From NCBI GenBank assembly GCA_012295275.1, contig CM022676.1, positions 12,462,001 to 12,526,000 of the forward strand: 64,000 nt of DNA, read 5' to 3'. The notes beneath the pieces were generated by a model that worked only from the letters and a program-made list of their open reading frames with translations, was not told the origin of the DNA and made no database searches. The position numbers and the translations under genes were made by a program. The stretch comes from Chrysomallon squamiferum (lineage: Eukaryota > Animalia > Mollusca). Shown here one piece after another: positions 32,801 to 38,000 of this stretch (its first letter is position 1; each line of letters opens with the position of its first letter).

Positions 32801-35026
32801 GTACTGTAAGTGTTCTTATTACACTGTTCACTGTGTTCACTGTGTACTGTCTTATTGTTCTTATTGTACACTGTTCATTGAGTACTGTAAGTGTTCTTAT
32901 TACACTGTTCACTGTGTACTGTACACTGTTCACTGTTCTTATTTCTTACTGTTCACTGTGTACTGTAAGTGTTCTTATTACACTGTTCACTGTGTACTGT
33001 AAGTTCTTCTTATTGTTCACTGTGTTCACTGTAAGTTCACTGAGTTCACTGTAAGTGTTCTTATTACATTGTTCATTGTGTACTGTAAGTGTTCTTTCTT
33101 ATTACACTGTTCACTGTTCACTGTACTGTAAGTGTTCTTATTACACTGTTCACTGTGTACTGTAAGTGTTCTTATTACACTGTTCACTGTAAGTGTTCTT
33201 ATTACACTGTTCACTGTGTACTGTAAGTGTTCTTATTACACTGTTCACTGTGTACTGTAAGTGTTCTTATTACACTGTTCATTGTGTACTGTAAGTGTTC
33301 TTATTACATTGTTCATTGTGTACTGTAAGTGTTCTTATTACATTGTTCATTGTGTACTGTAAGTGTTCTTATTACATTGTTCACAGTGTACTGTAAGTGT
33401 TCTTATTACATTGTTCACTGTGTACTGTAAGTGTTCTTATTACATTGTTCACTGTGTACTGTAAGTATTCTTATTACATTGTTCAATGTGTACTGTAAGT
33501 GTTCTTATTACATTGTTGAATGTGTACTGTAAGTATTCTTATTACATTGTTCACTGTGTTGTGTTAGTGTTCTTTCACAGTAGTTTGTTGTTTTTGTACT
33601 GTAAGTGTTCTTATTACATTGTTCACTGTGTAATGTAAGTGTACTTATTAAATTGTTCAATGTGTACTGTAAGTATTCTTATTACATTGTTCATTGTGTA
33701 CTGTACGTATTCTTAGAACATTGTTCACTGTGTTCTGTTAGTGTTCTTATTAGTTTGTTGTTTTTGTACTGTAAGTGTTCTTATTATAATTACTTACATT
33801 GTTGATTGTTTTGTATTGTTGTCCTTAAAATGTTAATGTTTAAACATTTGTTTTGTCTACTTTAGTAAATCAAGCATTGAACGAGTTATAATAATACTTA
33901 TTGTTATACTTATTGAAATCCATTGATAGATCCACCATCAGTCCCAAGTTTAACTGCAAGTTCAAATTTTCCCTGGTTAGAAAGAGAAAACAGAAATTTG
34001 ACGTGCTCTGTGAGAGAGAGAGGAAATCCTCCAGCTGACTTTGTCTGGTATAAAAATGGAGTCAAACAGCCTGGACAAAGAAAATCTATCTGGTTGTTCA
34101 GAAACCTGACTTACAAAGATAACAAACTAACATTCAGATGTGAGGCTCAAAATATTTTTACACTACACAAAAATGAAGTGAAATCTTCACCTGATACAGC
34201 ACTCAATGTTTTCTGTGAGTATTAAACATGATGCTTTGTTATTTTTATACTGTTTTATGATTTATTGAACTTTAATTTGAAACCGACTAGTGTTTATTGC
34301 CATGAAAAGTCCAAGAATCATAAACTGTTTAATTATTATTAAGAATTATTCTTTGTTTGCTAAAAATAATTTATAGTGTACGAGAAATCAAACTTAAAAA
34401 CAAGTAAATAATGATTTAATTTACTACAGACAGTCCACGAGTAACTGTTGATACATCTGGACCAATCACAAAGCGAGAAGGACAGGAGTTGGAGAAGATA
34501 GACTGTACTGCAGACAGCAATCCTCCAAACCCTACAATTACTTGGACATCAGATTCAAATAAACCATGGAAGGGTGGTCTCCCTTTAGAGATAGCAGTAC
34601 TTGACAGAGGGCAGCACGGGACATATACGTGTAAAGCGACAGTCACTTCATCACTGGGAACACTGACAGGAACTTCACAAATTGAAATTATAGTAAACTG
34701 TAAGTTTTTAAAACTCTTTTTAAATTATATTATTTTATTATTTTTTTTATAATACATTATTGCACATTAAATTTAAATTAGATCCACAAATCACAAATTG
34801 AAATTATAATAAAGCGTAATTTAAAAAAATAAAAATAAATTAATATTAAATTTATTTGTTGATTAGTTATCTCCCTGATTAGTTAGTGTCATTTTACATT
34901 TTTTTAAATATATTAATTTTTTTTTTTTTTCTAAACTGGTGGATTATTGTATATTCAATTAGATTCATCAATTACAAACTGCAATTGTAATAAAATATAA
35001 GAGGAATATTTCTTGTTCTCAATACA

Positions 35027-35057
<31 letters not shown>

Positions 35058-38000
35058 GTAATAATAATAATAATAACAGTGTTCGTTCTGATTTCTCTAA
35101 GATGACTTTTTTAATGTTTTGGAATGTTAAACAGATGCTCCTGATGTTGAAGTGACAAGTCAGACAACAAGTGAAGGACACAAACTGACTGTCACATGTG
35201 AGGCTATTGGTCGACCAGACTCTTACACATTTCACGGTTTTCAACAGAGCTGGAGAGATCAGTTTGTGAGAAAGGTGGAAGGTACTAAAGAAGAAAGAAA
35301 CAAATATGTGTGGACAGTGCAGTCTGCTAGTTACAAAGATTCTGGTACATATCAGTGTCTGGTAGACAATACAATCACAGACACAAACAACACGTTGATT
35401 CAAAGCAACACAACTTTAGTACTTGTCAGTGGTGAGTTATTTTATTGTATATTTTGTAAATTATGTTAAGAGTTAAAATAGTATTCAAATCAGTATATCA
35501 CTTTATTTGTAAAGATATATTTTGTATATACGACAAAAATAACATCACTAAGAATCATTTTCTTTCATTGTAAGCTTTAACATTCTTGATTAGTTTTTTG
35601 ATAATCAATTACATTTGTGACATAGAGAAAAAGTGAGCCAGTTGATTTATTTAGGTACAATCCATTTAAATATATGTGGATCCTGTGTGGATTTGTCTTG
35701 ATAGTGAGCCATGTTTGGTAATAGAAATAATGCAAAGTATTGTCTAAATCAGGGGTGGCAATTGTTTTTTCTGTGGGACCACATGAGAAACAGAGAATAT
35801 TGTGGAGGGCCAGGGCAAAAGGCTTAACTCAGTTCTGCATAATATTAATTGTATTTCTTTATAAACCCAGTAAATAGCATTGTTTTGACAAGCTGGTAAG
35901 ACTGGTAAGAGTATATGTTATGATTAAACAATAAAAAAAGTGAGGTTGCCTTAGAGAAAAATGTCATTTATTCAATTATATTTCTCAAAACAATGGTCCC
36001 AAAAATTTGAACATTTTTAACATTTGTGACTCATTATATTTCACCTCATAATGCCAACTCAAACTGTAATCCTTAAAGACAGCGATCTGCTCTCTGCAAA
36101 CTAAACTCATGGCTTTACCTCCGACTTCAGTAAATAGATACTTTTTAGTTGTAAACCCTGCATTCAGCATCTACCTTTCTCTTTTTAGCATGAGTGGACA
36201 TTTTGAGGGCTAAAGTCGTATTGGGACTTGCTTGTGAAAACGATTCAGTCACATGCACGTCTTGATTTACATATTGTGTCATTTTGTACATGAATAAAAA
36301 TCCACCTTCAAAATAAAAGTAATGCTGCTTTAGTCCATGCATGAGGTGAAATTAGAAAATATGTTTATTTTATAATTCCCAATTAACTTTACATGGGCAC
36401 ATCAGTCAAAATGCCCAGGTCTGGTCTAAATGTTAATCAAGACTGGTTACTTTGATTTCAGATTATTCTTTACATATATTAGAAATAACAAGTTAAAAGC
36501 AGAAAAAGGTTTTATTTACATCACTTATAAAAAATGCGAGCTAGCTGATTTAGTTAGCTTCAAACCATTTTAATATACACAGATCCACATAGGAAAACAA
36601 ATTCCATTGTCTTGATAGCCAGCTATGTTTGGAAATAGAAATAACACAAAGTAGTGTCTAAATGTTAACCATGACTGGTTACTATGACTAAATATCCTTC
36701 TTTACATACATTAGAAATAACAAATCAAAAATAGAAAAATGTTTCATTGAAGTTACACACAAATATTGTTGGAATTATGAGGTTGATGATGATGATGATG
36801 TTTGCAGGAAAACCAGTGATCACACTTAAGAGCAAACAAGATGAAACAATTGGAGAAGAAACAGGCACAAGAGTCATGTTGTACAAAACAGTGTTTTCTC
36901 AAAGTGAAATTACGTCACACAAGTGGATGAAGAACAGTGACGTCATTAATGACACCAGAATTAAAACTGAAATGACTAAAACACAAATAACTCTGAGTTT
37001 GTTTGAAAATGTTGTTGTTCATGATGACGGCTACAACTTTACACTGGACATCAACATGTTTGAAGAGTCAGACACTGGACAGTACACACTTGAAGTGTGT
37101 AATAATTTCACTTGTGACATTTTCTCAACTCATCTGACAGCAGCAGGTTTGTACTGTTTTTATTTCTGATGATTTTGTAGAAGTTTATTTCATTATGATA
37201 GTAATTGGATGACAATGTCTATAAGTCATTTTATTTATTTTTTATCTTAGGACCACCTTACGTGCCAAGGTCATTCTCAGCATTTGGTTCTACAAGTGAC
37301 ACTGTATTTCTAAAGTGGACAGCAGATTTTGCTGGAGGTCCATACACTCAGAGATTTTTAGTGGAATACAGAGACACAGATACAAAGTCTGACTGGAAAC
37401 AACAGTGGTACAATGATCATGCTGAAAGAGATGAAGTTGTTTTTATGAACATCACAGGATTAAACTCAGGACACACATATGTGTTCAGAGTTTTAGCTGA
37501 GAATTCAAGAAATCTCAGAAACCGCAGTCCATTTACATCTGAAGTAACCATAGAGACTAAAGGTAATTCATTATTTCAGTTAAATATATTTTATTTAAAG
37601 AGAAATGTATTGGTTATTTATTTTTATTTTGACTTATCACAACACTAAATGTAACATTACAGACTGAAGTTTATTGTACAGGTGTTATTAGGAAACTGTT
37701 TTTTAAAGTAAAAATATTTAAAAGGTAATAAAAACATTTTAGAAAATAAAAGATAAGAACAAAATTGTTAATTTGATAAAAAATGTAGAGTGAACAGTTT
37801 CTAATTTGTTTCTTGTACTGATTACAAATCAAGGTAAATGTTTTGGTATACCACAGACTGCTTGTATTATTTAGCATCAAATGATCTTTTATCTTCACCT
37901 TCTCATAGACAGGAACAAACATTCTTTGTTAAAACTGGTGGTAACCATAAAACCCTTTAACAAGTTCATAAATATTATTTTGAAGTAATTGGCTTATATA

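Follow-up and report, generated by a model that had tools for sequence, protein, structure and literature searches.

Two linked Ig/FN3 receptor genes of the gastropod Chrysomallon squamiferum with predicted opposing tails and a nearly identical membrane-proximal ectodomain

Homogenised pairs of activating and inhibitory receptors are documented for vertebrate leukocytes. Tyrosine-based activation motifs of immunoreceptors (ITAMs) bind Syk/Shark, and the corresponding inhibitory motifs (ITIMs) bind SHP/SHIP (bioRxiv 2022.03.04.482883; for this and all other papers cited, statements refer to the portions of the text that were accessible). The present report concerns a stretch of 64,000 nucleotides of Chrysomallon squamiferum (Mollusca; NCBI GenBank assembly GCA_012295275.1, contig CM022676.1, positions 12,462,001 to 12,526,000 of the forward strand), hereafter called the window. 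It holds two receptor genes with immunoglobulin (Ig) and FN3 domains, gene A with an ITAM tail and gene B with an ITIM and a tyrosine-based switch motif of immunoreceptors (ITSM) in its tail, which have a nearly identical part of the ectodomain in common, and a third paralog, gene C. All three are linked inside this one 64-kb window, and their coordinates are positions in it. A and B are gastropod Ig+FN3 receptors with predicted opposing tails, and their Ig6-FN3 regions were, with fair probability, made alike through repeated ectopic gene conversion involving all three genes. The principle is already known from vertebrate paired immune receptors, and the mollusc case appears new in the literature searched: a search that was incomplete for subscription journals gave no molluscan report of a homogenised opposing receptor pair.

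Several described systems come close. Merohomogenization, known for KLRC/NKG2, Ly49 and PIR (PMC3210942), is like the present case in its old opposing tails, greater than expected likeness of ectodomains within a species, patchy tracts and shifting partners. However, there the ligand-binding exons but not the stalk are homogenised in each of the two species compared, whereas here membrane-proximal domains and introns are concerned and the peltospirid gastropod Gigantopelta aegis has no matched pair among the proteins found. The closest system is CEACAM1/CEACAM3 together with Xenopus ceacam (PMC5112662), where an ITAM within the chain is opposed to ITIM/ITSM, the tail exons are small and conversion ends at splice sites. 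The ceacam pairs lie in opposite orientation, likewise B and C, although A and B have the same orientation, and conversion in CEACAM is restricted to the N exon, unlike the A/B tract (PMC5112662). The pairs SIGLEC11/16 and SIGLEC5/14 (PMC5701461, PMC13358205) resemble A and B in a multi-kb tract with introns at 97-99%, a 3' boundary near an exon end and fragmented tracts, but their tract covers the V-set ligand domain and their activating partner uses a charged transmembrane (TM) segment and DAP12. A and B are not a Siglec pair: the predicted TM segment of A is uncharged and A has its own ITAM. An earlier note on this DNA, made from the sequence alone, had drawn the analogy with SIGLEC5/14 and SIGLEC11/16; it holds for the intron-containing tract and for the boundary, but with its own ITAM and uncharged TM segment A is nearer to the CEACAM3 type. 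To our knowledge, there is no FN3 domain in CEACAMs.

Among invertebrates, Hydractinia Alr and Botryllus FcoR (bioRxiv 2022.03.04.482883, 2022.03.25.485889, PMC12582321) are clustered Ig receptors (with FN3-like domains in Alr) with ITAM/ITIM tails; alr2A, alr2B and alr2C have similar ectodomains and different tails, and the Botryllus genes mix ecto- and endodomains. Recombination of ectodomains was suggested in the accessible accounts of Hydractinia alr2, not mapped, and the Alr Ig domains lack paired cysteines whereas most domains here keep them. In molluscs, oyster CgNCAM1 (PMC11841013), with three Ig domains, FN3, TM and two ITIMs, and an oyster ITAM Ig receptor (PMC11999971) are Ig(+FN3) receptors with working ITIM/ITAM signalling, the likeness being one of description; in the text available both are described singly, without a matched opposing partner or conversion. 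Two papers on Biomphalaria TM clusters do not mention ITAM or ITIM. A mapped protostome case would mean that the same solution was reached with an unrelated receptor family. With A and B, research on mollusc immunity would have a defined matched pair for probing balanced ITAM/ITIM signalling, and through the bivalve and abalone relatives the idea can be examined phylum-wide.

The tract shared by A and B, its boundary and its copies

The window edge truncates gene A, of which Ig6 to Ig9, FN3, an uncharged TM segment and a 71-residue tail with one ITAM are visible. Gene B is complete: a signal peptide is followed by nine Ig-like exons, an FN3 exon, a TM exon and a tail, predicted at 289 residues and spread over 12 small exons, all in a single open frame of 1363 residues with AG/GT exon boundaries; the middle tail exons are prediction only. 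Nine public runs of one organism contain the stretch and six were compared with the window: the DNA runs X1, which may be the source sample, and X2 and X3, further samples that belong to a second study, and in addition X4, X5 (RNA) and X8 (bulk RNA). The features of A and B under comparison are as follows.

1..3652, + strand: gene A copy of the tract, with satellite end, Ig6-Ig9 exons and introns; its 5' end is the window edge
350-634, 850-1119, 1557-1853, 3231-3569, + strand: Ig6-Ig9 exons of A
3653..4061, + strand: intron stretch of 409 bp in A, present also in C (diverged) and not in B; a contig at single-copy depth covers 3614-4106 in X1 and X2
4082..4393, + strand: FN3 exon of A; near-identity to B ends at its donor
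5740-5886, + strand: TM exon of A, no charged residue in the predicted TM segment
6248-6272, 6453-6499, 7094-7201, + strand: tail exons of A, with the ITAM YEGL-x7-YSKL
33581..37562, + strand: gene B copy of the tract, with Ig6-Ig9 and FN3 exons; X5 RNA contigs splice Ig7-Ig8 and Ig9-FN3
33930-34214, 34430-34699, 35135-35431, 36808-37146, + strand: Ig6-Ig9 exons of B
37251-37562, + strand: FN3 exon of B
38206-38337, + strand: TM exon of B; the first tail junction of B is present in X5
38206..50618, + strand: TM exon and 12 predicted tail exons of B, with ITIM LIYVDL and ITSM TEYASI at the end (50463-50618)
2172-2846 in A and 35750-36423 in B, + strand: hAT-like non-autonomous element, common to A, B and C
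4394..4520 in A and about 37563-37670 in B, + strand: decayed A/B homology remnant, about 110 bp past the FN3 donor

In a global alignment, 32 substitutions and two indels (2 and 1 bp) separate A 1-3652 from B 33581-37228, introns counted, and a BLAST self-comparison of the window gave 98.9% over 3664 columns for 1-3664 against 33581-37241. The earlier note had described 1-3650 and 33581-37227 as almost base-identical, including introns and a dead hAT element, and the FN3 exons as differing at a few sites (11 of 312 by the present count), and both descriptions are correct. In A and B alike the hAT-like element sits at one and the same site, flanked by a target-site duplication of 8 bp, and its 3' junction recurs in C. 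Directly 3' of A 3652, the tract is interrupted by 409 bp of the Ig9-FN3 intron of A without a counterpart in B. The A and B proteins are identical at 487 of 500 residues (97%) over Ig6-FN3. The differences are spread unevenly: they affect 2 of 852 sites for the exons of Ig6-8, 19 of 2478 for the introns and 22 of 651 for Ig9+FN3, so that Ig6-8 and Ig9+FN3 show a 14-fold contrast (Fisher p=8e-7) and the Ig9+FN3 exons are more diverged than the introns (p=3e-6). Positive selection on the A/B exons is unsupported, as pN (0.014) is below pS (0.025). The wording of the earlier note, ectodomain homogenisation, is thus shown for Ig6-FN3 only, the 5' end of the tract being the window edge.

Beyond the tract the two genes part, their tails being unrelated. 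The tail of B has an ITIM and then an ITSM, with no ITAM, an arrangement matched by 9 of 20000 shuffles; the ITAM of A was matched by 545 of 20000. The opposite signalling output supposed in the earlier note is thus found at the motif level. As predicted from the motifs, A would engage a kinase of the Syk/Shark type and B a phosphatase of the SHP/SHIP type, which would make them an opposing pair. The splices FN3-TM, TM-tail1 and tail1-tail2 of A are present in X4 and X8 contigs, spliced contigs of X4 joining Ig9, FN3, TM and tail of A. In X8, FN3 is joined both to the TM exon of A and to a B-type TM exon, a junction that may derive from B or C.

The near-identity of A and B ends at the FN3 splice donor, where the donor sequences are those quoted in the earlier note. 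Its statement that similarity ends immediately there is right for near-identity, but a collinear remnant of decayed homology continues for about 110 bp past the donor (none of 500 shuffles and none of 262 real control segments scores as high as its 62). Beyond 150 bp past the donor, no significant A/B homology was found (272 of 500 shuffles reach the score). The TM exons are unequal (147 versus 132 nt) and hardly alignable, as had been noticed before (13 of 500 shuffles reach the score), and the TM regions are 28% identical. The remnant points to an earlier exchange extending into the FN3-TM intron, and decayed intron homology would suffice to halt tracts at the donor.

The third paralog lies on the other strand.

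58962..64000, - strand: gene C, from the hAT intron onward, its 5' part off-window
63321-62983, 62330-62017, 61115-60984, - strand: Ig9, FN3 and B-type TM exons of C
60071-59958, 59389-59279, - strand: two ITAM exons of C, resembling the last exon of A

C is 95-98% identical to A and B in Ig9 and FN3, and it is like B in the intron after FN3 (94% across the initial 180 nt) and in the TM exon (93%). C shows module mixing directly, having the TM exon of B with A-like ITAM tail exons. Between A and C, the Ig9 and FN3 exons are 97-98% identical, and the intron between them is 83% identical with 250 gap columns. The informative sites of A, B and C are clustered: 78 sites fall into 18 runs (0 of 20000 permutations; 2 of 20000 with exons only). 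Exchange was patchy, as conversion predicts. As assembled, C has a +2 frameshift in FN3 near 62066, which equals the prefix of B joined to the suffix of A at the most variable FN3 codons and came either from conversion with an imprecise joint or from polishing; its absence from the contig indels listed counts neither for nor against it, as contigs can lose variants.

As to the copies themselves, the earlier note had named half coverage as the sign of an assembly copy. Contigs of the shared tract had median depths of 2.1x, 2.3x and 2.3x those of unique-flank contigs in X1, X2 and X3, respectively, so the duplication is real; these figures are per-contig values hand-picked among the longest pieces listed, summed depth being no measure of copy number. 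Unbranched contigs at about 2x depth measure 230-340 nt, and one of them covers a stretch that C lacks. In X1, the A-specific intron (81.5) and the B-specific join (79.5) are both at single-copy depth, and both occur also in X2, as in both runs does the C-type intron deletion. X1 has no cover over the TM exon of A and X2 has cover; a gap proves nothing. In addition, X1 has about 4x depth in Ig9 (window 3400-3664), and a half-depth contig exits A at 3664 into unassigned sequence; the two together possibly reflect a fourth, hemizygous copy. An orphan 3' part of an Ig8 exon with its donor (8544..8671, + strand, 90% to A/B) is located 3' of the stop codon of A.

Relatives in other molluscs and the age of the tails

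The search with FN3 gave one close relative among 33 candidates, the G. aegis protein P0001, which is the closest protein (64% over FN3) and has an A-type TM segment and an ITAM tail, TM and tail being 45% identical to those of A. Its top feature match was an Alr2 cluster (0.96, a lead only). A second G. aegis protein, P0156, has a B-type tail, and its last 96 amino acids are 45% identical to the distal tail of B (0 of 200 shuffles). It was found only as a cluster member, the word search with the last exon of B giving no match. To the ectodomain of B, P0156 is 35-41% and P0001 49-69% identical. By full-library search and cluster look-ups, the family was found in Haliotis, Mya, Argopecten, Sinanodonta and Potamilus. 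Among 150 hits, 56 have a called TM segment, and these include 18 ITAM tails and 8 B-type tails, the pattern for the B-type class having been chosen after the data were seen. ITAM and ITIM/ITSM motifs are both conserved in other molluscs.

An ectodomain tree of Ig8-FN3 was made from 23 hand-chosen rows, with the hypotheses for the approximately unbiased (AU) test named beforehand. A and B form a clade (100/100) whose sister is P0001 (99/97), and the AU test rejects the grouping of A with P0001 (p=0.001) and that of B with the P0156 group (p<1e-80). Both tail types predate the split from G. aegis, and the ectodomains of A and B became alike afterwards. The ectodomain of B probably derives from the ITAM lineage, judging from these sequence comparisons.

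Other G. aegis proteins, P0003, P0004 and P0151, combine A-type TM segments and tails of ITAM or ITAM-like type with ectodomains that are very different; in P0003 and P0004 the second motif of the ITAM-like tail ends in M and the ectodomains are 19-32% identical to that of A. A swapping of A-type tails among G. aegis ectodomains is suggestive only (tail tree 85/84, AU p=0.115). P0151 and P0001 have consecutive accessions and a contig of equal length, which suggests a tandem cluster, and in Sinanodonta woodiana the locus tags of P0072 and P0038, an ITIM-type and an ITAM-type member, are 15 apart, a hint of mixed bivalve clusters. In the tree, the ectodomains of unionid ITAM and ITIM proteins fall together. 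The 90% cluster of Mya arenaria holds no ITAM/ITIM pair, its 10 members having ITIM tails, short tails or no TM segment.

Explanations of the likeness between A and B

Blocks of clustered sites, and A and C exons that are more alike than the intron between them, argue for repeated conversion rather than a single duplication; tails older than the species split, together with an A/B ectodomain clade, indicate that the ectodomains were equalised after the tails had diverged. In the course proposed, B would first have acquired an ectodomain of the A lineage by an exchange whose end lay about 110 bp inside the FN3-TM intron. Later conversion tracts would use the exons and the still-homologous introns as substrate; the FN3 donor would be their limit, since the homology past it is decayed and since selection would act against tracts overwriting a tail. 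Some findings weigh against this explanation. Ig9+FN3 is the most diverged part of the tract, and 13 of 500 residues differ across Ig6-FN3. The orthology of B and P0156 is not proven, as no branch is starred in the tree built from ITIM tail ends, and with such resolution hidden paralogy is possible. P0001 and P0156 are only 40% identical over Ig8-FN3, so homogenisation is not seen in both lineages among the proteins found; a number of the G. aegis hits are incomplete or lie on short scaffolds, and a matched partner there may be unannotated, P0009, whose tail is mis-annotated, being a candidate. The evidence comes from contigs and not from long reads, none spanning the whole tract, and at several A/B sites public contigs have only the letter of A, so some B-specific letters are unconfirmed. 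Moreover, in RNA of another individual, one X5 contig ends with an upstream Ig5 exon that matches B at only 25 of 30 bases and may come from a paralog or allele, and Ig6 occurs in two variants that differ at 6 and 8 positions of 136 nt.

The simplest rival, a single recent partial duplication or unequal crossover that put an A-lineage ectodomain before an old ITIM tail, with no later conversion and no pairing function, is unlikely. It would suit the grouping of the B ectodomain with the ITAM gene of G. aegis and not with its ITIM gene, the uniform identity of about 99% in most of the tract, introns too, and the lack of a homogenised pair among the G. aegis proteins found. Yet one event has one age, and the 14-fold contrast and the excess of Ig9+FN3 differences over introns do not agree with that, nor do the partners that switch along the tract, the A and C exons far more alike than the intron between them and the older homology that persists past the FN3 donor. 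That the assembly made the likeness, through a false copy or through polishing of diverged copies with cross-mapped reads, is very improbable and is already contradicted for the duplication itself by the depth of about 2x in three runs, including in the stretch that C lacks, by both intron forms at 1x and by both FN3-TM splices in RNA, although the window starts inside a minisatellite, degenerate in mid-array and holding an N, the frameshift of C joins a B prefix to an A suffix and some letters of B are absent from public contigs. It is also rather improbable that A and B are neural or adhesion molecules of a nephrin- or sidestep-like kind whose tyrosine motifs serve adhesion signalling and not immunity. 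Their architecture is nephrin-like and database names are contactin-, hemicentin- and DSCAM-like, but those names are automatic, the family diverges fast and splits into the two tail classes counted above, and the oyster Ig+FN3+ITIM protein binds microbes and recruits SHIP2 in the accessible report (PMC11841013).

Selection that keeps the whole ectodomain matched, including the ligand-binding tip, with A as a decoy or counterweight to B, a strong form of the inference drawn in the earlier note, would be an addition to conversion rather than an exclusive alternative, and it is possible, if somewhat doubtful. The layout is as in the vertebrate pairs (PMC3210942, PMC5112662), the motifs are opposite, TM and tail are spared by the tracts and both spliced forms occur in one RNA run. 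However, the N-terminal domains of A are off-window, an Ig5 end in RNA is diverged, the shared part is the membrane-proximal region, which is not homogenised in the C-type lectin pairs of PMC3210942, and a homology barrier accounts for the boundary without selection by a ligand. Repeated conversion among A, B and C may, more speculatively and rather doubtfully, be one instance of a phylum-wide molluscan paired ITAM/ITIM Ig+FN3 system, in which the FN3-TM intron would be a recurrent exchange point, bringing outer domains into new combinations with signalling tails; the inhibitory gene would here have taken an activating ectodomain, the reverse of the 'inhibitory first' model, and conversion would keep the pair matched to one microbial ligand.

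The remainder of gene B and the sequence between A and B

Upstream of the shared tract, gene B has the following features.

22623..30264, + strand: signal-peptide exon and exons of Ig1 (V-like) to Ig5 of B; the A counterpart is outside the window
30253..33786, + strand: 34-bp minisatellite of about 102 copies, each unit consisting of the end of the Ig5 exon with its splice donor; A 1-206 has this array end too

In the Pfam scan, Ig was supported for 6 of the 7 Ig exons of B scanned (Ig5 being outside the scan), Ig2-4 among them, and FN3 was supported as well. Ig1 had no Pfam match at E<=0.05; it is 38% identical to the N-terminal domain of P0001. The translations of Ig2-Ig8 retain canonical cysteines, and Ig9 is atypical. 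The 34-bp array after Ig5 holds 82 GTAAGT hexamers, and a second array after Ig4 (29391-29577), with a 63-bp unit in 2.9 copies, likewise consists of exon end and splice donor, so the two arrays of B sit in consecutive introns. Two small tail exons of B are duplicated at window 41197-41826, with an NPxY motif in each. Between A and B, at about 17500-19400 in the window, a degraded transposase-like remnant was recognised by eye, which we take to be pogo/DDE-like.

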